Both the position numbers and the translations under genes were made by a program. From an uncultured Bacteroidales bacterium (GTDB taxonomy: Bacteria > Bacteroidota > Bacteroidia > Bacteroidales > B18-G4): a stretch of DNA of 64,000 bases. The notes below the pieces were generated by a model. It was given only the letters and a program-made list of their open reading frames with translations. It was not told the origin of the DNA and made no database searches. How positions within the stretch are numbered: position 1 is the first letter of the stretch; the number at the start of each line of letters is the position of its first letter. The DNA lies in assembly GCA_963753055.1 (NCBI GenBank), contig CAVWAP010000002.1, positions 257,411 through 321,410 on the forward strand, read 5' to 3'. Shown here piece by piece: positions 7,215-55,070 of this stretch.

Positions 7215-8282
7215 TTAGTACTTATTCCCTTTTTTGTCCTTTTTGTAATTCTTTATCATTTTACCAAAATCTTTATCCTTTTTTCGTTTTTCAGCAACAG
7301 TCGATTCAAAATGCTCTTTTTCCCGTTCCATTTTCAGGTAGTTTTCATAGGACAACTTATCTATTTCTCCACTTTCAACGGATGCTATAACTGCACAGTC
7401 AATTTCTGTTGTATGTGTGCAATTGTTGAATTTACAATCTGTAGATAGTTTGAGTATTGTTTCAAATGTAATTTCCAAACCTCCTGTTGAATCCGCAATC
7501 CCAACTTCTCTCATTCCAGGATTGTCAATTAGAATTCCGCCATTTTTAAGAACGATTAATTCGCGATGACTTGTAACGTGTCGTCCTTTGTTTGTACTTG
7601 TACTAATCGTATTAGTTTTCATCAATTGTTTACCTGAAAGATTGTTCAAAAGGCTTGATTTTCCTACTCCTGATGAACCTAATAAACAGTAAGTTTTTCC
7701 TTTTTCTATATTCTGTTTAAGTCTTTCTATTCCTTTTTGGGACTCATTGCTTATAGGAATTACTGGTACTTGATTTATTCTTTCTTGAACTGTGGTAATC
7801 AACTTTGCTAAGTCGGTATCACTTATCAAGTCAATTTTATTAAGAACGATAATCGGTACTACATCTGATGTATAGCAAATCGTCAAATACCTTTCTATTC
7901 GGTTGATGTTAAAATCCCTTTCAACTGCCTGTACAATTAAAGCATAGTCGATATTTGTTGCTATGATTTGTTTCTCGCCTTGTTTGCCAACTGCTTGTCT
8001 TTCAATGATGGTTTTTCTTGGAAAGACCGAGTGGATAAGCACATTATTTTCATCATATTCTGAAAATGCAACCCAATCACCGACAGCAGGGAAATCTGAC
8101 CTTTTAGTAGCTGAAAATCTTAAATTTCCGATAATCTCCGCATCATATTCTTTTTTAGTAGTTTTTACGACGTATCTTTCCTTGTGTTCGGAAATAACTC
8201 GTCCCACTTCAAATGAATCAAGATTTTGGTCTTTTCGGTAATTTTCCAATTCTATATTATATCCTAAATCTTCAAGTGTCAT
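7215..8282 (-). CDS. rsgA: ribosome small-subunit-dependent GTPase A
   Basis: Circularly permuted GTPase motifs VLNKIDL then GSSGVGKSSLLN. Zinc knuckle CKFNNCTHTTEIDCAV. Lys-rich C-terminal tail. Confidence 0.9.
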   Translation of the reverse strand: MTLEDLGYNIELENYRKDQNLDSFEVGRVISEHKERYVVKTTKKEYDAEIIGNLRFSATKRSDFPAVGDWVAFSEYDENNVLIHSVFPRKTIIERQAVGKQGEKQIIATNIDYALIVQAVERDFNINRIERYLTICYTSDVVPIIVLNKIDLISDTDLAKLITTVQERINQVPVIPISNESQKGIERLKQNIEKGKTYCLLGSSGVGKSSLLNNLSGKQLMKTNTISTSTNKGRHVTSHRELIVLKNGGILIDNPGMREVGIADSTGGLEITFETILKLSTDCKFNNCTHTTEIDCAVIASVESGEIDKLSYENYLKMEREKEHFESTVAEKRKKDKDFGKMIKNYKKDKKGNKY

Positions 8283-8427
8283 TTCTTCTTTCTTGTATTA
8301 AGCACAACGTTCCCGGCGCATGGCCCGGGGCGGTGTTTTATGTTCCGCCGCAGCTGGATTCTTTGTTATTACACTAAAGATACAAAAAGCTCTGTTTCCA
8401 ATACAGAATCTGATAATTACATGCAAC

Positions 8428-8476
8428 GGTCATCCTGAAGGAGTCTCGCCTTGGGCGAGGCGACTGAAGGACCTCC
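8428..8476. repeat. REP-like GTCATCCTGA...GAAGGACCTC backbone with inserted hairpin
   Basis: ggtcatcctga [aggagtCTCGCCttgGGCGAGgcgact] gaaggacctcc. The same backbone with a different insert occurs at 21343, 25718 and 44163. An insert-free relative gtcaccccgagcgaagtcgaggggtctc lies at 8760. Confidence 0.65.
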
Positions 8477-8520
8477 TTCACTTTTGCTCCTAGTCAGCAG
8501 AAACAGTCAGCTTGCTTGAT

Positions 8521-8900
8521 CACAGAATTTGACTTTCTTCATTCTTACTTTTTCCATGATGAAAAAGTAACAAAAAATCTAGTCGGAACGAAGCTTCCGC
8601 GCGCCCTGTCCGTATCCTGGCGGATACGGACATTCCCACACACGCCGGCCCGCCGTTCCGACCGGCCCCCCCGCCCGGATAACAATCATTCTTCCTTCTA
8701 AAATAAATTCTGTGACAGTGCCGGGTAGATATCTTACAAGGTTTATAGATACAAGATGTCACCCCGAGCGAAGTCGAGGGGTCTCCATCACGTAGGCACC
8801 GGACTGGCAGAATCTACCTGCCAGCTATATGCCGTAAGCTATTTAATAGTGTTGTTACAAAAAACGAAAAGAATGAAAGGGTAAGGCTATTGGATACAAC
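8521..8900 (+). repeat. divergent member of the approx 370-nt GC-rich structured element family
   Basis: Shares its ends (cacagaatttgactttc ... aagggtaaggctattggatacaac) with the copies at 21099, 25476 and 43925. The internal hairpins sit at the same relative positions but have a different sequence. Confidence 0.6.
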
Positions 8901-9019
8901 GTTGTCGGTATGCGCAGTGCGGGTTTCAGGGCGAATACCTATCGAGCCGTTGCTATGTTTATTTACATGTACTCACGTTAAATTTCCACATTGTCCCGCA
9001 TTGCGTATGACCGCGTGTT
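8898..9019. mobile_element. 122-bp MITE-like element
   Basis: Imperfect approx 25-bp terminal inverted repeats: AACGTTGTCGGTATGCGCAGTGCGGG at the left, and the reverse complement of the right end reads AACACGCGGTCATACGCAATGCGGG. No ORF. Confidence 0.55.
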
Positions 9020-9080
9020 AGCAACAGTATTTTATTATCAATATTAAAAGGTCAACTTTTTGTAATTTTTTCAATATTTG

Positions 9081-10061
9081 TTAACTTCTCATTGCTGCGA
9101 TATATTCTTCAATTGCAGTCTTGATGGGAGTATAGGTAATACCCAGTTCTTTTTCAGCTTTACTACCATCAGCTTGAAAACCTACTTTCATTGTTTTCAT
9201 CTGGTTATCAGACATACCCCAGATAGGTGGTTTTTTGATCAAGTTGGAAATCCGGGTGAGCACGTAGGCACTCGACAATGCCATGAAATCAGGCATGCTT
9301 ATAAAAGGCAATGAAACTCCAGAGACTTCACTTATCATTTTATTGAAATCTTTTAAACTAATCTGATGTTTCGCAATAATGTACCTTTCACCTATGTTGT
9401 TAGGTTTTTCTGCCGCTTTAATTATCCCTTCAGCAACATCTTTGATATGAACCCATGTAAGAATACTATTTTTAAAAATAGTTGCCGGTAAAGTCTTTTT
9501 GACAAGCCCTGATACATATGCACCAGATGATTTTGGATCTCCTGCACCTAAAACTGCACCGGGGTAGATAACTACTAGTGGCAAACCATTGTTTTGATAA
9601 AGATCCCAGGCTATCTGATCACCTTCAAATTTAGTCTGAGCATATAAACTGTACTTCTCAGGGCCTGGTGTACTATCTTCCTTAAATGGGATTTCATTAG
9701 GTTTTCCATAAGTCACTACTGAACTGATATGCACTACTTTTGATACCTTGGTTTCCAATGCACATTCCATTATGTTACGAGTGCCATCAACATTCGTTTT
9801 CTTGTAGACTGACTTATCAGGTTCCCAAAATGTATATATGTTGGCCAAATTAATGACCCAATCACAACCCTTCATTCCTTGAAGGATGGATGACTTGTCT
9901 CTGACGTCTCCTTCTATTACTTTAACTCCAGATGACCGGAGTCTTTCAATAGATGGACTAGTTTTCCTAACCAAACATAACAATTCATGATTGGTATATT
10001 TTAACTGTTCAAGTACCTGTTTTCCTATAAAACCGGTAGCTCCTGTAATAAATATTTTCAT
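9081..10061 (-). CDS. NAD(P)-dependent epimerase/dehydratase family (extended SDR) oxidoreductase
   Basis: N-terminal MKIFITGATGFIGKQV Rossmann motif and YAQTK catalytic motif. 326 aa. Confidence 0.85.
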   Translation of the reverse strand: MKIFITGATGFIGKQVLEQLKYTNHELLCLVRKTSPSIERLRSSGVKVIEGDVRDKSSILQGMKGCDWVINLANIYTFWEPDKSVYKKTNVDGTRNIMECALETKVSKVVHISSVVTYGKPNEIPFKEDSTPGPEKYSLYAQTKFEGDQIAWDLYQNNGLPLVVIYPGAVLGAGDPKSSGAYVSGLVKKTLPATIFKNSILTWVHIKDVAEGIIKAAEKPNNIGERYIIAKHQISLKDFNKMISEVSGVSLPFISMPDFMALSSAYVLTRISNLIKKPPIWGMSDNQMKTMKVGFQADGSKAEKELGITYTPIKTAIEEYIAAMRS

Positions 10062-10231
10062 GTTCTGTTATTTGTTTAACCAAATTTTGGCGAATAATGA
10101 ACTTAAATCAAATTTATTTTTGGTATTATTTAGTTATCAGAGGGTTATGCACAAAGAGGTTTATATATTGAGTGATTTTTAGGGAATAATTGGCATAGCA
10201 AAGATCTATCTATAGCACTCATATTGTTGCT

Positions 10232-10353
10232 AACGGTTTGGCTATGTGTAGTGTGGGATTTTATTGTACCTCACTTTCAAATCACTACAAAACTTATTGC
10301 TTGTGTATACTTTCAAATTATCACTGAAACCCGCATTGGATATAGCCTTGGTT
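10232..10353. mobile_element. 122-bp MITE-like element, inverted relative to 8898-9019
   Basis: Left end AACGGTTTGGCTATGTGTAGTGTGGG. The reverse complement of the right end reads AACCAAGGCTATATCCAATGCGGG. Same length as the copy on the other side of the SDR gene. Confidence 0.55.
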
Positions 10354-10715
10354 ACAAGCATTATTAAATGAAAATTCTATACAATTTTAAAAGTAATGAT
10401 TTTATTGATGATAAAATGTGCAATTTCCATCAGCATTTTAATACAAATTGTTCATAACTTTATTAGAATCGATGGGTTACTAAATTGATTTTTTGGAATT
10501 AATATTTGATAGTATTAACAATAGAGCTTTTCACTTTTTTATTAAATGTTAATACATGACTGCAAAGTCTAATTTATCAGTCATATTATCAATTATAATT
10601 CGTATTCAAATTAAATACATTTGTGCGCATTTCAGAGTGTTGAATTGGTGGTGTGAATATGCCGAAAATACACCTTTAAAAAGAAGTAGGCATAATCTAT
10701 CAAATATTATATGTT

Positions 10716-11171
10716 ATGAAAAAATTATTGCTATTTGTATCAATTTTTGTTTTGCTGATCAGTGAAACAACATGCCAGGAACAGGGCAATATTATTATTG
10801 GCCGTTTAGAATCAGGTGAACCCGTTATTACTTTAAGCGAATCAAAAATTAAGACCGATTGGGAAAGTCTCCTAGGGGATGAAGATATTAATGTGGATTT
10901 CTCAGAATTCGGCATCGCTGATATGGGAACCTACTATTTGTTAATTGGAATAGATGAAACAAATGGTATTGAGGCAGCAATTGAGTTAGTTCTGGTAAGC
11001 AACCAATTTTATGAGGATTTAGATTCTGGTAATGGTCATACAGTAACTTGTAAAGGTTGCGCCTGGGCATGTCATCCCAAAAAACAGGGTGAAAATTGGA
11101 TTTGTCATCCCAATTGTGATCCTTGTGAAAAGACAGAAGTTGTAGTTATAGAAAACGCAATATTTAATTAG
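10716..11171 (+). CDS. small secreted Cys-rich hypothetical protein
   Basis: Signal peptide MKKLLLFVSIFVLLISETTC. C-terminal CKGCAWACHPKK..WICHPNCDPCEK cysteine cluster. Confidence 0.55.
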   Translation: MKKLLLFVSIFVLLISETTCQEQGNIIIGRLESGEPVITLSESKIKTDWESLLGDEDINVDFSEFGIADMGTYYLLIGIDETNGIEAAIELVLVSNQFYEDLDSGNGHTVTCKGCAWACHPKKQGENWICHPNCDPCEKTEVVVIENAIFN

Positions 11172-11404
11172 CCCAAGAAGGATATGTCCATAAAAAGATC
11201 CTTGAAATTAATTATTTAATTAGTATTGCTTGTAACTTGTTTATATATTATCATTTTGTTGTCTTTAACACCCATATAGGGTGGATAAAAACACGTTTAT
11301 GTAATTTGTATATATGATTTATTCAAATATACAAAAGTTTATTTGGTCATTTCTGCTGCAACTTCCACCCCATCTTCGCCAAAGGCTCCGGAGGGTAAAA
11401 AAGG

Positions 11405-11464
11405 GAGCACGCTTTGTCCGCCATAGCCTTGGCGGAGGCGGATGCTCCCTTTTTTGATATCTGA
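11405..11464. repeat. A-tract/long hairpin/T-tract module, copy 2
   Basis: Identical to 4691-4749. Followed, as there, by gatatctgattc. Confidence 0.7.
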
Positions 11465-11721
11465 TTCGTGATCCACCTTCGCTGCGCTTCGGTGGACAAC
11501 GTATCTGATATCTGATATTTGATTATTCTGTTCAGTGTTCAGTGATCAGTGTTCACTGTGTTGGCTTGTGCGTGTAGTTCTAGTCAGGAAAAGGGGGGGT
11601 AGATGTTTGTCGTCAGCAACATTTGGTCACAATTAAACCATCTTCTTGGGTTATAGCTTTATGATGTCCAAATTCTTTTGAAGACTTACAAGAAACGAGG
11701 CGTATAATGTTACTGTATTCC

Positions 11722-13050: not shown

Positions 13051-14856
13051 ATGAAAAAGTTTATACTATTAATCATTATGATGATTCCAATTATCATGAT
13101 GTCACAGACACCGGTTCCTGCGGGACCGGTATCCGGCACCTGGAACCTTGCCGGCTCACCCTATATGGTGAACGGGGAAATCTATATTGAGGAAGCGGCC
13201 ACACTGGTAATTGAACCGGGAGTGGAAGTACGTTTTACAGGCTGGTATAAGTTTATCATAAACGGATCCTTAATGGCTGAAGGCACCGAAGCAGCCAATA
13301 TTCTTTTTACTGCTGATGATAACAATGAGCATTGGTACGGGCTCAGGTTTATAGAAAGTAATAAAACTTCAGTCCTGGATTATTGTATTGTCGAATATGG
13401 AGAAACAATACTTGATTGGGGTATTGGCTTGTTTCCTGAAAATGCCGGTGGTGGGATTCTTGTAAGCATGTGCCCAGATGCTTCCATATCAATTAAAAAT
13501 TCTATCATACGTAACAACGAGGCTTATGATGGCGGTGGAATATTATGCGATGAAAGTATTATCACAGTGGAAAATTGTGAAATCACCTCAAACAGTGCTT
13601 TCAATGGTGGTGGCATAGTTATTATTAACAATTCTTCTCTTACTATGACCAACTCAACCATTGCAAATAATTCCTCTGGAAACGAAGGGGGAGGGATTCT
13701 ACTTCTTGTAGGAGGTTTACTGGAATTAATCAATAATACATTTATCCATAATACCTGTCAAAATGGTGGTGGTGGACTTTGTATTTATGATCCTTTGAGT
13801 TTTATTATTAAGCAAAATATTATAGCTTTTAATTCCGCTGAGGAAGGAGGGGGTATCTATCTCGATGACGCATATAATTTAGGATCATTATCAGACAATA
13901 CCATTGCCTATAATGAGGCAACTATTAACGGAGGAGGGGTATGCTGTGTTGGAAATACAACACACTCCTTTGAAAGTAATATCATTTATTTCAATCAAGT
14001 AAACGAAATAAATAATCAGATTTTTCTTTCCGGCAACTCAATTCCCATAATTTCATATTGTAATATTCAGGACAGCACAGCTGGATTTAGCGGTTATGGT
14101 GCTGCCTCGGTATCACTTACTGATTGTGTTTATGGTGACCCATTATTTTCAGATCCCATGAACGATGATTTCTCTTTAACATGGGATAATTATCCTTATC
14201 CGGACGGAACCAGATCACCATGTATTGATGCCGGTTGTGTGGGATTACCTGAACCCGACGGCACTTGCAATGATATCGGGGCATATTCCTTCTTCCAGCA
14301 ACTGGATGTACCTGTGATGCTAACAAATACCTATGTAAATGAAAATAGTTTCCTGGCAGAATGGACGGAATGCTATGGGGCTCTCGGATATTATCTCGAT
14401 GTTGCACTGGATGATGGATTTACAAATATGGTATATCAAGGAATTGAAGTGTTTGATAGCACCCGCTATATGGTTGAAGAACTTGATCAGGGAACAACAT
14501 ACTATTACAGAGTGAATGCATATAACAGCGCCCTAACCAGTATCTATTCTAATACTGAATCGGTTTCAACTCTTCCGACTTCAATTGATGAACAAGTTTT
14601 AATAGTTAAAATAGCCATTTATCCAAACCCCTGCACCACCACCACAACCCTCTCCTACATCCTTGACAAACCTGAGAATGTACAGTTTACAGTTTACAAT
14701 GTACAATCTCAGATCGTTTTTATGATGAAGGAAAAGCAGGAAAAAGGAGAGCATAAGGTGCAATGGAATGCTGAAGGATTGCCTGCCGGGATGTATTATT
14801 TCAGTATCCAGGCTGGTGAGATGGTTGGTGGGGGGAAATTGGTGAAAATGGAATAG
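13051..14856 (+). CDS. secreted beta-helix repeat protein with FN3-like domain and T9SS CTD
   Basis: Signal peptide, GGGI(L) beta-helix turns, an FN3-like segment (WTECYGALGYYLDVA...YYYRVNAY), and the CTD YPNPC...FTVYNVQSQIV...LPAGMYYF..KLVKME. Confidence 0.85.
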   Translation: MKKFILLIIMMIPIIMMSQTPVPAGPVSGTWNLAGSPYMVNGEIYIEEAATLVIEPGVEVRFTGWYKFIINGSLMAEGTEAANILFTADDNNEHWYGLRFIESNKTSVLDYCIVEYGETILDWGIGLFPENAGGGILVSMCPDASISIKNSIIRNNEAYDGGGILCDESIITVENCEITSNSAFNGGGIVIINNSSLTMTNSTIANNSSGNEGGGILLLVGGLLELINNTFIHNTCQNGGGGLCIYDPLSFIIKQNIIAFNSAEEGGGIYLDDAYNLGSLSDNTIAYNEATINGGGVCCVGNTTHSFESNIIYFNQVNEINNQIFLSGNSIPIISYCNIQDSTAGFSGYGAASVSLTDCVYGDPLFSDPMNDDFSLTWDNYPYPDGTRSPCIDAGCVGLPEPDGTCNDIGAYSFFQQLDVPVMLTNTYVNENSFLAEWTECYGALGYYLDVALDDGFTNMVYQGIEVFDSTRYMVEELDQGTTYYYRVNAYNSALTSIYSNTESVSTLPTSIDEQVLIVKIAIYPNPCTTTTTLSYILDKPENVQFTVYNVQSQIVFMMKEKQEKGEHKVQWNAEGLPAGMYYFSIQAGEMVGGGKLVKME

Positions 14857-19529: not shown

Positions 19530-19667
19530 AGTTAAATAGTTATTTGATATTATATTTCTAAGACGAGGTTAAATATTGCGTAGTTACACTAATTTTATTA
19601 TCATTCGTATTTATTCCGAGCGTTTGGAAAAAAACCAGTATATGGCAAACCTCTTGACAAGCCCCGT

Positions 19668-19847
19668 AATCTACAATTTACATTTTACAATTTACATGGT
19701 CAGATTGTTGATAAAATACAAGAGAGTCAGGCAAAAGGGACGCAAAAAGTGGAATGGAATGCTGAAGGACTCCCTTCTGGAATGTATTATTACAGGATAC
19801 AGGCTGGGGAAAAGGTTGGAGGGGGGGAATTGGTGAAAATGGGATGA
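19668..19847 (+). pseudogene. orphan T9SS CTD relic
   Basis: Translates to NLQFTFYNLHGQIVDKIQESQAKGTQKVEWNAEGLPSGMYYYRIQAGEKVGGGELVKMG*. There is no N-terminal body. The track ORF 19576..19836 reads it out of frame. Confidence 0.65.
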
Positions 19848-20963: not shown

Positions 20964-21098
20964 TGAATTCCTATCTGTGGTTCAAAATGAATTCCATCAT
21001 ACCATTTTCTCTCCAGTTTGGACTAAGATACCAAGTGCTTTTTAATGATAGGTGTGTTAGGTGCAAATTCCGGAGCCATTGTACACCGGTATTTCCAA

Positions 21099-21465
21099 CT
21101 GGCACAGAATTTGACTTTCATATTTCTTCATTTCTTTTGCTTGTCCAAAAGAAATGAAGCAAAGAAAAGGACAGCACGAATGCAGCCCTTTCTCCCCACG
21201 GTCAGACTTCCCACCGCACAGTCCCCGAAAGGGCCACACCATTCGTGCACTCCCCGCACCGGCTAGCACTGATTGATCTATGCTTCTCAGTTGGCAAAAT
21301 GTAGAGCCGGCTATAAATAGAAAAGCTAGTTACTTGTAACGGTCATCCTGATCCCGCGGAGCAAAGCGAGGCGGGAGAAGGACCTCAATCATTTTAGCAG
21401 TCAGCTAGCAGAAACAGACTGTCAGCTTTCCGAAAAGGGAGAGGGTAAGGCTATTAGCTATAACG
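21099..21465 (+). repeat. approx 370-nt GC-rich structured element, copy A
   Basis: About 98 percent identical to 43925-44291 and about 96 percent to 25476-25842. Contains a 13-bp hairpin (21127-21158) and the long-range stem GCACGAATG (21174-21182) / CATTCGTGC (21240-21248). Confidence 0.8.
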
Positions 21466-21606
21466 TTTAGTATAAGAATAGTAGCCGACTACTTGGCACT
21501 TCCCTGTCAAGTTACAAGAAAGTTGAAGCGGACTACAACCCTTGAATTTACTACAGTCCTGGCTATTATTTTTATACTTTGTTACCAGCCGTTTTTTTAT
21601 ATCGGA

Positions 21607-22462: not shown

Positions 22463-22737
22463 ATGTAATTTATAAAATTCTTCATTAATGTTGATAAAAT
22501 TAAACTATTTCTCCTCTAATATCGTGAATACGAATAAGATTCTTTTGCATTTGCAAATGGCTGGTAACTTGTTTATATGTTAACCTTTTGTTACTTTACA
22601 CACCCATTAAGTGTGGATAAAAACACGTTTTCAGTAAATATACAAAGATTCTGTGCTGCAACTTCCACCAAGAAGAGGCTCCACAAACAAAGGAACAGAG
22701 AAATAGAGGAGTTTTGAAATGATATCTGATTCATGAT

Positions 22738-25202: not shown

Positions 25203-25239
25203 AATTAATAGATAAATGAGTCATTTTTTATTGCAGCAT

Positions 25240-25362
25240 AAAGTTCCCGGCGCATGGGCCGGGGCGTGTTTTTGTTCCGGCTCAGCGGGATGATTTGTTA
25301 ATACATTAAAGTTAGTCAATTCTGTTATAAGATGTCCCGCTGAGGCGGGACAATTTTTGTTA
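25240..25362. mobile_element. approx 120-bp MITE-like unit (GC-rich-end variant)
   Basis: Starts AAAGTTCCCGGCGCATGGGCCGGGG and ends GTCCCGCTGAGGCGGGACAATTTTTGTTAT. The internal pairing ctcagcggga / tcccgctgag is present. A homologous unit lies at 43690-43808, and a related start at 8306. Confidence 0.45.
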
Positions 25363-25475
25363 TAAAGAAATGCTTTCATTCAAGCTCAACGGCGTTCTCG
25401 ACCTAAAACACCGCCCTGGCCTATAGCGCCGTGTTATATTACTGTAGCCTTAACCGATCCAATTCTGACCAGGTA

Positions 25476-25842
25476 CTGGCACAGAATTTGACATTCATAT
25501 TTCTTCATTTCTTTTGCGTGTCCAAAAGAAACAGAAGCAAAGAAAAGGACAGCACGAATGCAGCCCTTTCTTCCCACGGTCAGACTTTCCGCCACACGAG
25601 CCCCGAAAGGGCCACACCATTCGTGCACTCCCCGCACCGGCTAGCACTGATTGATCTATGCTTCTCAGTTGGCAAAATGTAGAGCCGGCTATAAATAGAA
25701 AAGCTAGTTACTTGTAACGGTCATCCTGATCCCGCGGAGCAAAGCGAGGCGGGAGAAGGACCTCAATCATTTTAGCAGTCAGCTAGCAGAAACAGACTGT
25801 CAGCTTTCCGAAAAGGGAGAGGGTAAGGCTATTGGATATAAC
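25476..25842 (+). repeat. approx 370-nt GC-rich structured element, copy B
   Basis: Collinear with copies A and C. Substitutions cluster in 25578-25600, inside the long-range stem. Confidence 0.8.
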
Positions 25843-26047
25843 TCGTTTATATGTGCTCCTTTGTTCTTGAGTTCCTCTGTTCAACATGTTGTCCCTTTTT
25901 TGATATCTGATTCATGATATCTGATATCTGATTTTCTGTTCAGTGATCAGTGTTCAGTGTTCACTGATTTGGCTTATGTGTGTAGTTCGAGTCCGGGAAG
26001 GGGGTGGTTTATAGATACTTTATTAATATTCGTCATCTGGATAGTCG

Positions 26048-37838: not shown

Positions 37839-37936
37839 TAAAAAGCAGCCCCTTTAATGATTAAAAAAAGCCCGCGATGTAAGGCAGGCTTCTTGATTTT
37901 ATTATTAAGCCAGGAATTATTTCCCGGTTGCAAGTT

Positions 37937-43658: not shown

Positions 43659-43689
43659 AGGCTATTTTGGCGTATTGTTCATTACCTCC

Positions 43690-43808
43690 AACGTTCCCGG
43701 CGCATGGGCCGGGGCGTGTGTTTTTGTGTCGTGGCAGCGGGGCGCTATTTTCTGGATTAAATATACAAAAACGCCTTCTATATGTCCCGCTGTTTCGGGA
43801 CAAAGTTT
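43690..43808. mobile_element. approx 120-bp MITE-like unit (GC-rich-end variant)
   Basis: AACGTTCCCGGCGCATGGGCCGGGGCG ... GTCCCGCTGTTTCGGGACAAAGTTTT. Homologous to 25240-25362. Confidence 0.45.
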
Positions 43809-43924
43809 TAAAGGGAGAACCCTTGCCAGTTTTCTGAAAGGTATGCTTACCCTAAAACACTGCCCTGGCCTATTGCGCCGTGTTATGATCCTGTAGCCTT
43901 AACCGGTGCAATTCTGACCAGGGG

Positions 43925-44291
43925 ACTGGCACAGAATTTGACTTTCATATTTCTTCATTTCTTTTGCTTGTCCAAAAGAAACGAAGCAAAGAAAAGGACA
44001 GCACGAATGCAGCCCTTTCTCCCCACGGTCAGACTTCCCACCGCACAGTCCCCGAAAGGGGCACACCATTCGTGCACTCCCCGCACCGGCTAGCACTGAT
44101 TGATCTATGCTTCTCAGTTGGCAAAATGTAGAGCCGGCTATAAATAGAAAAGCTAGTTACTTGTAACGGTCATCCTGATCCCGCGGAGCAAAGCGAGGCG
44201 GGAGAAGGACCTCAATCATTTTAGCAGTCAGCTAGCAGAAACAGACTGTCAGCTTTCCGAAAAGGGAGAGGGTAAGGCTATTGGATATAAC
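43925..44291 (+). repeat. approx 370-nt GC-rich structured element, copy C
   Basis: Near-identical to copies A and B. Contains the CCCC-GAAA-GGGG hairpin inside the GCACGAATG/CATTCGTGC stem. Confidence 0.8.
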
Positions 44292-44558
44292 TAGTTTATA
44301 TGTGCACCTTTGTTCCTGAGTTCCTCTGTTCAACATGTTGTCCCTTTTTTGATATCTGATTCGTGATCCACCTTCGCTGCGCTTCGGTGGACAACGTATC
44401 TGATATCTGATTTATGATTTTTCTGGTCACTGGCCCGCCCATGCGAAGGCAGGTGTCACTCGTCACGACTGATCACTGTTCAGTGATCAGTGTTCACCGA
44501 TTTTGATCCTGCGCACTTTTTTCGTATATTGTTTGTCTCTATATTAACACCAATAGAG

Positions 44559-45473
44559 ATGAAACAAACAAAAATCTATTCAATAGTACTATTCTCTTTT
44601 TTATTAAATGTTTGCCCGCTATGTGGACAGAATAACATAGATGATGAAGGGTATATTAAAGAAGACTCTATGAATCTTGCTGTTCTTGTTGTAGACTTCC
44701 TTACATACGAATTCGAAGAAGCAAATATCTCTTATTACTTACTTTGCGATAGCTGTGACCTGGATAGCCTTCCATTCAATATAATCTTTGAATATCCTAT
44801 GGATTTTGGAGAAATTCTGTATAAATATTCATGGGATGATGACACCTTGTTTCATGGATCAATTATATGGTTAGGAACAGGAGAAATTCATTATCCAGAT
44901 CAGTTTTTTCCTGCAGACTCTTTTGGAATAAGCAATAATCAAGTGTCAATTCCTTCAAATGCACAATACTATGATTATTGGCTGATCGGCCACTCATATT
45001 GTTCTGAAGAAAGGTATAAGGAAAGAGCAGATTCAGCATGGTTTTCAATCGACTCCTTACTATTGGTAAATGAATTTGCAAATCATTCATTTCGTGTAGG
45101 ATTCTATGCATATACTCCAAGTGTTGGCATGTTTAATCCTTATGTTGCAAAATGGATCATCTTTCTTTACTATGGCAATGACTTTGGAGTAAGTGTCCCT
45201 GAATGCGATAAGGATAACTATTTCACACATCCTTACCCTAACCCCTGCGCAAGCGTTGCACGCTTGAGATTAACGATTACCGACCAACGATTAGCGATAT
45301 GTGATTTATATTCGATTTCGGGAAGTAAGATTTTGAGATTGATGGAAGAAGAGAAACTGCCAGGGGAATATGAAATTGAGATAAATGTGAGTGATTTGCC
45401 AGCAGGTATTTACTACATAAGGATGCAGGTTGGTGAGAATGTTGGTGTTAGAAAATTGGTGAAGATGGAATAA
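44559..45473 (+). CDS. T9SS C-terminal sorting domain protein (hypothetical cargo)
   Basis: The ATG at 44559 gives MKQTKIYSIVLFSFLLNVCPLCGQ. The C-terminus is YPNPCASVARL...LPAGIYYIRMQVGENVGVRKLVKME. Confidence 0.8.
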   Translation: MKQTKIYSIVLFSFLLNVCPLCGQNNIDDEGYIKEDSMNLAVLVVDFLTYEFEEANISYYLLCDSCDLDSLPFNIIFEYPMDFGEILYKYSWDDDTLFHGSIIWLGTGEIHYPDQFFPADSFGISNNQVSIPSNAQYYDYWLIGHSYCSEERYKERADSAWFSIDSLLLVNEFANHSFRVGFYAYTPSVGMFNPYVAKWIIFLYYGNDFGVSVPECDKDNYFTHPYPNPCASVARLRLTITDQRLAICDLYSISGSKILRLMEEEKLPGEYEIEINVSDLPAGIYYIRMQVGENVGVRKLVKME

Positions 45474-45712
45474 TGAAATGATGTTCCATGGCCGCATGGA
45501 CACATGTACGAAGTAATACCTTGTTAAATGAGAACATGCGTACATGTGAGCATGGTAAATGAATAATGATTTCCTGGTCACTGGCCTGCCCCTGCGAAGG
45601 CAGGTGGCACAGGTCACTGAATATAGGATAATGCGTATGTGGGTTTTATGAGGGGACTAAAGAACAACAATAAATATTGCATTCTCAATTACGAAAAAAC
45701 AATTTTTGAAAA

Positions 45713-53758: not shown

Positions 53759-53831
53759 TAATATGGCGCTATGTGTTATCTATGGGTATTCTATGTGTAT
53801 TCTAAGTTAAAGTCAAGTATTTTTTAGTTTT

Positions 53832-54824
53832 TCAAGCTGCATATTGTGCAATGGAAACATATGGAGTTCCTCTGGTTATTGTTGCAAAAACTCTTCCAAT
53901 TAATTTATTTCTCACGTTATTGATAACAATTTTCTTATGCTTTCCTTCATCTATCTTCTTTTTGAAGTATTGCCGTATTTCCGGGTCATGGTTGATTGCA
54001 GCCAATGCTGCGTTTGTAAGCAGTGCTTTAATCGTTTTATTAGCGTAATGACTGATCCTGGTTTGACCATGTATGCTTGTCCCTGAACTATGCTCAAAAG
54101 GAGCTGAACCCACATAGCAAGCAAACTTTCTTGCATTATCAAAATCTTCAAAGCAATTTGTATAAACAATCATATATGCCGCCGTAATCATCCCAATACC
54201 TTTCACCGAAGTTGCTAATTGATACTGATGTTTGATTTTATGATGTTGATCTATTTGCTGGATGATTTCATTTTCTATTTCTTGTATTTGTTTGGTATAA
54301 ACCCGGATCATTTTTTGTTGGTTTTTGATCAACACATCACTATTGCATAGCCCTAAATACTCTTTGGATTGCTCCATCGATGTTTTAAAGCTGGCTCGAT
54401 TCCTGGCTAACCTGGATCTATAAGAGAGCAAATACTTTAGCCTGACCAATTGTTTTGATCCCAAGGTGGTCATTCTTAACTTATCCTTGTGCAAAAAGGC
54501 ATATTCAGCAAGTCGGAAAGCATCAATCTGATCGTTCTTTCCCCTTTGTATGCCCAGAGATCTTTTTACCTGCAACCCACTAACCTTGGTATAATGTAAT
54601 CCTTTATCCTCACAAAACAATTGCAGCGGGAGATCATACATGCCAGTATGTTCAAAGCAAATGACTAAATCTTGTAAATCTTCCAGGTTTCTTTCCAACC
54701 AGATGATCATTTTCTTTAAACCTTTACTGTTGTTATCAAAAACTTCCTTGGTTCCCTTCCCATAAATACAAGCATCCAGTTTAGCTTTTGAAACATCAAT
54801 TCCTAAAAAAGTTCTTTTTTTCAT
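53832..54824 (-). CDS. IS110 family transposase (DEDD recombinase)
   Basis: GIDVSKAKLD and EHTGMYD N-terminal motifs. C-terminal SVKGIGMITAAYMIVYT....FACYVGSAPFEHSSG domain. Confidence 0.9.
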   Translation of the reverse strand: MKKRTFLGIDVSKAKLDACIYGKGTKEVFDNNSKGLKKMIIWLERNLEDLQDLVICFEHTGMYDLPLQLFCEDKGLHYTKVSGLQVKRSLGIQRGKNDQIDAFRLAEYAFLHKDKLRMTTLGSKQLVRLKYLLSYRSRLARNRASFKTSMEQSKEYLGLCNSDVLIKNQQKMIRVYTKQIQEIENEIIQQIDQHHKIKHQYQLATSVKGIGMITAAYMIVYTNCFEDFDNARKFACYVGSAPFEHSSGTSIHGQTRISHYANKTIKALLTNAALAAINHDPEIRQYFKKKIDEGKHKKIVINNVRNKLIGRVFATITRGTPYVSIAQYAA

Positions 54825-54851
54825 AACTTTGAGTGACTTTGTTTTTAAAAT

Positions 54852-54990
54852 AGTTGCATTAACTAAAACCTTTATTGGACCTTAAGTCCAAGATTCTAAC
54901 AAGTTCTTGCAACTGTGAATGGAAGAATGGGGACTAAAACGCATAATAGACCATCTGCCTTGCTCTATGCTTAGTTCACCCCATTCTTTC
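54852..54990 (-). ncRNA. candidate IS110 bridge/seek RNA (two stem-loops with internal loops)
   Basis: SL-A, 54922-54990: outer stem GAAGAATGGGG/CCCCATTCTT(T)C and inner stem GCATAGA/TCTAT(TA)TGC. SL-B, 54852-54914: outer stem AGTTGCA/TGCAACT and apical TTGGA..TCCAA. Folding was done by eye only. Confidence 0.45.
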
Positions 54991-55070
54991 TTTTTTCAAC
55001 AAAGCCAAAGATAACTTCAAATGAAAAAGGCTAAACTAAAGGTTTTCTATGCGTCTCTATGATGCTGGAT

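Follow-up and report, generated by a model that had tools for sequence, protein, structure and literature searches.

The 64,000-nucleotide (nt) stretch analysed here (positions 257,411 to 321,410 of contig CAVWAP010000002.1, from an uncultured Bacteroidales bacterium; hereafter the window) contains four copies, designated A to D, of a non-coding element of approximately 370 nt, referred to below as the core. All four copies are intergenic, lie on the + strand and span 369-387 nt. An earlier note on this DNA, made from the sequence alone, had described A, B and C as near-identical copies of a GC-rich element, embedded at B and C in a longer collinear composite, and had suggested that the element could be a non-autonomous mobile element, a multi-copy structured RNA, or both.

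Copies of the core and the modules around them

The three near-identical + strand copies were recovered by repeat finding, blastn and nhmmer at 96-99% identity, in agreement with the earlier description. Pairwise identity is about 98.4-99% between A and C, 96.0% between A and B, and 96.8% between B and C, and eight of the eleven differences between B and C are concentrated within a single structural domain (H2, see below). The ends of the copies vary slightly among the three methods (21098/9-21465/9, 25475/6-25843/9, and 43925/6-44292/8), and each copy has private substitutions and unique flanks. The GC content of the core had been described as far higher than that of its surroundings. It is indeed higher (48% versus 37.8% in the window), but the excess, although real, is not extreme.

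Copy D, which belongs to a diverged subfamily, was missing from the earlier list of copies, even though the text of the note mentions four. D was first seen as low-stringency blastn fragments at 8305-8900, which alignment, nhmmer and segment comparison extended to full length. A covariance model of the 5' domain (167 nt), built from A, B and C only, recovers D as a full-length match (35.5 bits, E = 4e-6). D shares with A-C both end boxes, the order of the hairpins and near-equal spacings: between corresponding anchors in A-C and D, respectively, the loops measure 6/6 and 7/7 nt, and the linkers 7/7, 38/36 and 26/26 nt.

The 5' box (17 nt, CACAGAATTTGACTTTC) and the 3' box (22 nt, GGGTAAGGCTATTGGATAYAAC) are common to all four copies. 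The 5' box has five matches in the window, versus 0.35 expected by chance, and four of these lie within core copies; the 3' box has four matches in the window and none in 100 shuffles. Between the two subfamilies the 5' box is identical except for the 7 nt adjoining hairpin H1, while the left-flank pentamers differ (ACTGG in A-C, TTGAT in D). At the 3' terminus of the core, ATAAC is followed immediately by GTT in A and D and after two nucleotides (ATAAC-NN-GTT) in B and C. The unit is discrete, in that its end boxes are kept across two strongly diverged subfamilies and the similarity among its three young copies far exceeds that of the DNA around them.

The gene contexts are as previously described, B and C being situated between divergent genes and A between convergent ones, so that this discrete unit occurs in unrelated gene settings. 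The + strand partners at the B and C loci encode a beta-helix/NosD-like protein and a protein sorted by the type IX secretion system (T9SS). A and C share the core only, and their identity falls abruptly at both edges. The right edge of A is set by another module, X, which is found without the core in one related strain (L006).

The collinear composite of about 680 bp at B and C is real (25240-25918 versus 43690-44367, 87.8% identical overall); it is not one element, however, but a mosaic of an upstream U block (U1-U2-U3), the core and a Y module. Identity between B and C is 73% in U1, 54% in U2, 81% in U3, 96.8% in the core and 95.9% in Y. Since the core, at 96.8%, lies beside a left flank at 54-81%, the pattern is not that of uniform decay after one old duplication. 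The U block is an older unit; U1 and U3 form terminal inverted repeats (TIRs) of about 32 nt at its two ends. Its layout resembles that of a classical MITE (miniature inverted-repeat transposable element), and its internal hairpin, GTCCCGC...GCGGGAC, may pair instead with an upstream CAGCGGG. U1 also occurs alone, upstream of a free-standing internal module and core D (Table 1). Three - strand genes, namely rsgA, one of the beta-lactamase family and one of the AraC family, have U1 23-38 nt upstream of their start codons, and a near-consensus Bacteroidetes -7 box lies beside U1 on the - strand in C and D (TATATTTA and TATCTTTA).

Between the U block and the core in B and C there is an inverted copy of the 3' box, designated IRL, which matches the box at 19 of 23 positions; an equal score is reached in 1 of 2000 shuffles for C and 1 of 1000 for B. 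Upstream of A and D, such matches remain at background level. Relatives of the U, X and Y modules occur both in the window and in related strains, and the internal module of the core is likewise found on its own (Table 1); the neighbours of the core include other small repeats, among them promoter/leader-like modules, terminator-like modules and a TIR-bounded unit.

Table 1. Positions, in window coordinates, of the core copies, their internal features, neighbouring modules and mobile-element genes
Feature	Copy	Position	Strand	Length	Remarks
Core	A	21098-21466	+	369 nt	sharp edges, ACTGG... to ...ATAACGT; between convergent genes
Core	B	25475-25844	+	370 nt	96.8% identical to C
Core	C	43925-44293	+	369 nt	nhmmer 427 bits; 5' domain 220 bits with covariance model R1
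Core	D	8516-8902	+		diverged subfamily; blastn fragments; nhmmer 269 bits; anchor-by-anchor comparison
5' box	A; B; C; D	21103-21119; 25480-25496; 43930-43946; 8521-8537	+	17 nt	one mismatch in B
3' box	A; B; C; D	21443-21464; 25821-25842; 44270-44291; 8879-8900	+	22 nt	
Hairpin H1	A; B; C; D	21127-21158; 25504-25536; 43954-43985; 8545-8570	+		AT-rich; 6-nt loop
H2 domain	A; B; C; D	21174-21248; 25552-25626; 44001-44075; 8582-8662	+		9-bp long-range stem; encloses helix H3
Internal module	C	44154-44255	+	~100 nt	REP-like hairpin (GGTC...GACC with inserted hairpin), then H6
Internal module, free-standing		8411-8513	+		directly upstream of core D; nhmmer E = 1.2e-9, model positions 227-331; blastn 69%
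U block (U1-U2-U3)	B; C	25240-25432; 43690-43881	+	~190 nt	older unit
U block TIRs (U1/U3)	B	25248-25277/25400-25431			
U block TIRs (U1/U3)	C	43698-43729/43849-43880			
U1 alone		8305-8388			
IRL	B; C	25433-25455; 43882-43904	+		inverted copy of 3' box, 21 nt upstream of core
Y module	B; C	25845-25918; 44294-44367	+		right of core; relatives at 27339-27396, 37815-37861, 11446-11537
IS110-family gene		34934-36139	-		401 aa
IS110-family gene		53832-54824	-		
rve integrase gene		36809-37648	+		

Conserved fold and coding status

The motifs listed in the earlier note are all present in the core: an AT-rich hairpin (H1), a 9-bp long-range stem, a CCCC-GAAA-GGG(G) hairpin, two CCGGCTA boxes, a hairpin resembling repetitive extragenic palindromic (REP) units with an insert, and the 3' box. 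The long-range stem, GCACGAATG/CATTCGTGC in A-C, encloses 57 nt and has the counterpart GTCGGAACG/CGTTCCGAC in D; a conserved unpaired C/A-rich stretch, TTCCCACNCNCAC, lies within the same H2 domain.

Structure-preserving substitutions, which the earlier note had proposed to look for, were found when the young copies were compared with D. In H2, four of the nine pairs are changed on both sides between A-C and D, and 100% of the cells still pair; a perfect 9-bp stem arises at the homologous place in 39 of 20000 shuffles of D. In a model-guided alignment of the whole 5' domain, eight of the 29 pairs (four in H1 and four in H2) are changed on both sides, and 98% of the cells pair, a level reached in 0 of 500 shuffles, with slid controls being 37-62% paired. 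These statistics rest on effectively two independent sequences and on an alignment fitted to the structure. Because eight pairs changed on both sides still pair, the core fold appears to be under selection in some single-stranded form, either RNA or single-stranded DNA (ssDNA). Within the limit of two effective sequences, H1 and H2 thus display apparent covariation of the kind by which a structured non-coding RNA gene is recognised.

The fold is not conserved throughout the element. The REP-like hairpin and helix H6 are retained across the subfamilies, with changes, whereas the middle third of the core folds differently in D, so that the shared helices are H1, H2, H5 and H6 only. The predicted folds of the young copies are not better than those of their shuffles (z = -1.4 on the + strand and -1.6 on the - strand), while D folds better than its shuffles (z = -3.7 and -3.9). 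The counts of G-U versus A-C are symmetric and give no signal as to the strand of the fold. A long-range pairing of the 5' box with the core interior was considered and rejected: 174 nt downstream of its 5' box, D repeats 11 nt of that box in inverted form and without mismatch (8705-8715 versus 8520-8530), but the pairing is not conserved in A, B and C.

Signals for transcription of the core are few. A weak candidate for a Bacteroidetes-type promoter, TTTG-N18-TTCTTTTG, lies within the 5' box and H1, with a spacing of 14 nt in D versus 18. The exact Bacteroidetes -7 box TAnnTTTG is absent from all four intergenic regions, no consensus promoter occurs within the core, and no terminator follows the core 3' box.

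The non-coding status of the core holds. Its open reading frames (ORFs) differ between copies, no frame is common to the young copies and D, and a collection of 15 billion proteins lists none of 10 internal ORFs as a called gene. A search of the protein collection with a spurious core ORF, intended to find mis-called copies, likewise gave no candidate. As the earlier note had anticipated, the core corresponds to no named RNA family: Rfam gave no match over the whole window at the gathering threshold, and permissive scans gave noise at locus C and nothing at locus D. No tRNA or tmRNA was found. Exact scans for the 3' box gave no match in viral contigs, four in 185,579 species genomes and three in JGI metagenomes, all of them chance matches to the box alone; the 29 matches to the 5' box in viral contigs are also attributable to chance only. 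Nothing was found by blastn of the core against plasmid and phage records.

Related strains and module junctions

The window was compared with nine related-strain loci (L005, L006, L010-L014, L021 and L022; approximately 165 kb), whose neighbouring genes are 84-99% identical to those of the window at the nucleotide level. The core is absent from all nine by blastn, nhmmer and covariance model, and the 5'-domain model R1 found nothing in 123.5 kb of relatives. The small neighbouring modules, unlike the core, are common in these relatives, and therefore the core is much more restricted than its surroundings.

In every relative, similarity to the window ends at the left edge of the U1-led repeat blocks. 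The break points are at window positions 25230-25245 in four relatives, 8308 in L010, L011 and L021, 8310 in L012, and 43692 in one relative. In L010 (6988-7145) and L011 (3562-3719), window position 8308 is joined straight to 11234, with window 11367-11234 adjoining. These two strains thus do not have the 2.9 kb of window 8309-11233, which comprises U1, the free-standing module, core D, an epimerase gene (9081-10061, - strand) and a small ORF (10716-11171, + strand), while their rsgA is 97.7% identical to that of the window. The difference could be either an insertion here or a deletion there. Since the far flank is never syntenic in the relatives, no clean empty site, with both flanks conserved, is available for the core. 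Target-site duplications, which the earlier note had also proposed to seek, are not present at any of the four copies.

Most of the similarity breaks are marked by the motif AAC(N0-2)GTT, 23-38 nt upstream of a start codon; the motif is not evident in L005 and L014. In the window it occurs at 8303-8310, 25236-25245, 43686-43694, 11233-11240 and 22565-22572. At these sites different strains carry different upstream modules, and the 3' end of the core has the same motif. AAC(N0-2)GTT may be a recombination site. A reading of the AAC/GTT junctions as integron attC sites was rejected, because the half-sites are adjacent with no folded attC between them, and housekeeping genes occur there in both orientations.

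Several further observations concern this intergenic landscape. Intergenic DNA makes up approximately 21% of the window, a high share for a bacterium, and of the 36 repeat pairs detected by self-blastn, 33 are directly oriented. A family of promoter/leader-like modules (GGAAGTTGCAGCAC...TATATTTG-type -7 box...ATAAAC-NN-GTT) is seen at 11225-11367, 22557-22674 and 29778-29944, and in L005, L010, L011 and L021; its members precede different genes in the window and in the relatives and appear to be interchangeable between strains. The repeat at 37755-37845 matches 27279-27369 at 92-95%, depending on the method. Four other repeats (2550-2737, 14620-14854, 19653-19845 and 45396-45517) were excluded from the intergenic system, since they are coding and correspond to the C-terminal T9SS sorting domains (Por_Secre_tail) of secreted proteins. 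L006 carries a group II intron at 7824-9830 (- strand), with a reverse transcriptase/maturase gene at 7824-9134 and a match to Rfam RF02001 at 9379-9552 (116 bits). Upstream of the beta-lactamase-family gene, the intron is situated about 100 nt past the point at which composite B occurs in the window, and it appears to follow a small hairpin and a T-run.

Nature of the core

Taken together, the unevenness of the identity, the sharply bounded copy A, the lack of the core in relatives, its modular construction and its repeat-rich surroundings make it somewhat probable that the core is a young, non-autonomous, modular and lineage-specific non-coding interspersed repeat, spread or homogenised in trans. 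The signs of its mobility in these sequences are indirect, namely its absence from the related loci and the restriction of the similarity between A and C to the core. With respect to the suggestion of a mobile element, a structured RNA, or both, the non-coding, discrete nature of the unit, its unrelated contexts and its conserved fold stand, while target-site duplications, shared inverted termini and a clean empty site are lacking.

As a mechanism, a trans-acting recombinase or transposase that reads the end boxes might copy or homogenise the unit among repeat-rich intergenic regions; alternatively, gene conversion between such regions would yield the same pattern. The hairpins would be kept because the element passes through a single-stranded state, as ssDNA in movement or as RNA by read-through from neighbours. 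As RNA, the core structures would act on transcripts by terminating, insulating or stabilising them, in the way that has been proposed for BOX, enterobacterial repetitive intergenic consensus (ERIC), Correia and bacterial interspersed mosaic element (BIME) repeats.

A number of observations weigh against the interspersed-repeat interpretation. No mobilising enzyme was found, the two IS110-family genes and the rve gene in the window sharing no sequence with the core. There is no target duplication in the flanks of A, B, C or D, and the four copies have no inverted termini in common; the relatives compared offer no empty site whose two flanks are both conserved, so that insertion was never directly seen. 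Only four copies are known, a count that refers to the 64-kb window. Functional RNAs, more typically than junk repeats, have a helix such as this one, of 9 bp across 57-63 nt with four compensatory changes, and D folds much better than its shuffles. The single orientation of all copies is compatible with both a repeat and an RNA.

Among known systems, the core behaves closest to mosaic repeats of the BOX, Neisseria intergenic mosaic element (NIME) or BIME type, by analogy, and is a member of none. BOX repeats are modular and predicted to fold, without defined target duplications or empty sites (PMC3049150). Like the boxA-boxB-boxC elements of Streptococcus pneumoniae, the core is non-coding and intergenic, its modules may be present, absent or repeated, extended stem-loops are predicted if it is transcribed, and no transposase, clear target duplication or empty site is known for it (PMC3049150). 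In a descriptive sense, without homology, it thus falls into the class of BOX-like modular mosaics, with independent modules and predicted stem-loops. In contrast to BOX, it has no sequence similarity to that repeat, belongs to a different phylum, is longer (370 nt), and is known from four copies on the + strand only, whereas BOX has more than 100 in both orientations.

The core also resembles NIME, Correia, BIME/REP and ERIC repeats in being part of a mosaic of short intergenic repeats with palindromic units, which coincide with sites of inter-strain rearrangement, as is generally known for those families. Effects on transcripts have been proposed for NIME, Correia, BIME and ERIC elements. 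REP units are 20-40 bp long, carry a GTAG or CGTC tag and are moved by RAYT enzymes; the core, at 370 nt, differs in that only its internal GGTC...GACC hairpin is REP-like, without a 5' GTAG, and no Y1/RAYT gene is found among the window ORFs. Correia and ERIC have clear terminal inverted repeats, which the core does not have in all copies. The 5' end of the core is not an inverted repeat of its 3' end. In being short, non-coding, intergenic, apparently strain-variable and present in several copies, the core is similar to MITEs, among them those of Porphyromonas gingivalis (PMC4596501); an imperfect inverted repeat of 22 nt encloses B and C, and the U block beside them is TIR-bounded. In contrast to MITEs, A and D have no such inverted repeat, there is no target duplication, and the window contains no parent insertion sequence whose ends match.

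Other explanations of the core differ in which of these observations they accommodate. The main alternative, rather unlikely yet conceivable, is that the core copies are structured non-coding RNA genes forming one family, each about 370 nt long and independently transcribed from the + strand, with the boxes and the C/A-rich loop as functional sites, and multiplied by duplication or by riding on mobile DNA. Such genes would account for the compensatory changes in H1 and H2, including those in the long-range helix, the invariant end boxes, the conserved anchor spacing, the stable fold of D, the placement of all four copies on one strand, the unpaired TTCCCACNCNCAC conserved within H2, and the promoter candidate. 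However, the young copies fold like shuffles and give no strand signal, the promoter candidate overlaps H1 and does not keep its spacing in D, no terminator follows, the middle third lies outside the shared helices, and the family was not found outside the source genome in the collections and relatives searched; moreover, purifying selection accounts less well than copying for a stretch of 369 nt that is 97-99% identical throughout and has flanks at 54-81%. More doubtful is a combined form, in which the core would encode a previously undescribed structured RNA of about 370 nt, its terminal boxes and C/A-rich loop being conserved, that travels on or as a mobile unit and acts in trans. Such an RNA might be regulatory, or might guide or scaffold a recombinase whose gene lies elsewhere in the genome. 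In that case the AAC(N0-2)GTT junctions would be the exchange sites for swapping intergenic modules in this lineage. A cis-acting switch appears improbable: the core of B and C would be invertible, or would recombine, between IRL and the 3' box and thereby control a downstream gene whose product is secreted or exposed at the surface. Bacteroidetes commonly have invertible promoters, the inverted repeat formed by IRL and the 3' box is significant, B and C lie between divergent genes with + strand partners that are beta-helix/NosD-like and T9SS-sorted, and a palindromic AAC(N0-2)GTT recurs at module junctions. Nevertheless, the inverted repeat is confined to B and C and is imperfect, with an indel; the core has no internal consensus promoter, no invertase gene occurs near B or C, and all four copies share one orientation, no flipped version having been seen.

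It is very improbable that the core is a deletion derivative or relic of a guide-RNA transposon (an IS110 bridge RNA end or an IS200/IS605 omega RNA end) or of a group II intron. With such ends the core has in common a structured non-coding interior, defined ends and the lack of terminal inverted repeats and target duplications; its copies have a single orientation, two IS110-family genes are present in the window, L006 has a group II intron at the equivalent spot upstream of the beta-lactamase gene, and the differences of copy B are concentrated in the H2 loop. In contrast, the core shares no sequence with either IS110-family gene, with the rve gene or with the IS110 ends, and no copy is adjacent to either IS110 gene or to any recombinase or TnpB gene; neither TnpB, IscB, Y1 transposase, RAYT nor reverse transcriptase is found among the window ORFs, no matching transposase was identified in the window, and the Rfam models, those for introns and HEARO included, give no match. 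The variable loop is not tied to the flanks, being the same in A and C, which differ in their flanks, and bridge-RNA-style complementarity of the loops with ends or targets was rejected, because the 7-mer matches are at chance level and inconsistent between A and C. With regard to IS200/IS605 elements, H1 has no counterpart at the 3' end, the two ends carrying dissimilar hairpins, and the left-flank pentamer differs between subfamilies while the 5' box stays the same but for the 7 nt by H1. Finally, an assembly artefact or chance similarity is hardly credible. The window does come from a 579-kb metagenome-assembled contig, and assemblers err at repeats, but each copy has unique flanks and private substitutions, the diverged D cannot result from repeat collapse in assembly, and the box motifs are counted far above shuffles.

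If the core is an interspersed repeat, it adds one more lineage-specific mosaic repeat, of use in annotation for masking spurious ORFs, explaining contig breaks and flagging hot spots that differ between related strains. If the fold, the invariant end boxes and the coincidence of U1-led edges with synteny breaks hold, they would point to an RNA-guided or site-specific recombination system, which would shuffle promoter/leader modules upstream of genes in an uncultured Bacteroidales lineage.

The IS110-family genes of the window merit a separate description. The gene at 53832-54824 belongs to a complete element of 1261 bp (53791-55051, - strand), whose ends are well defined and unrelated to the core boxes. 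Its recombinase gene is preceded by 227 nt of non-coding DNA, the expected location of a bridge RNA. The other gene, near the rve-type integrase gene, is preceded by a 134-aa ORF or non-coding stretch (36147-36551, - strand). Copies of the complete element, 98.7-100% identical, occur in six metagenome contigs (L015-L020); two of the sites share ATCATAGAGAC in their flanks, and the window copy is bordered by the tandem heptamers CCATGTT and TGTCAAC.

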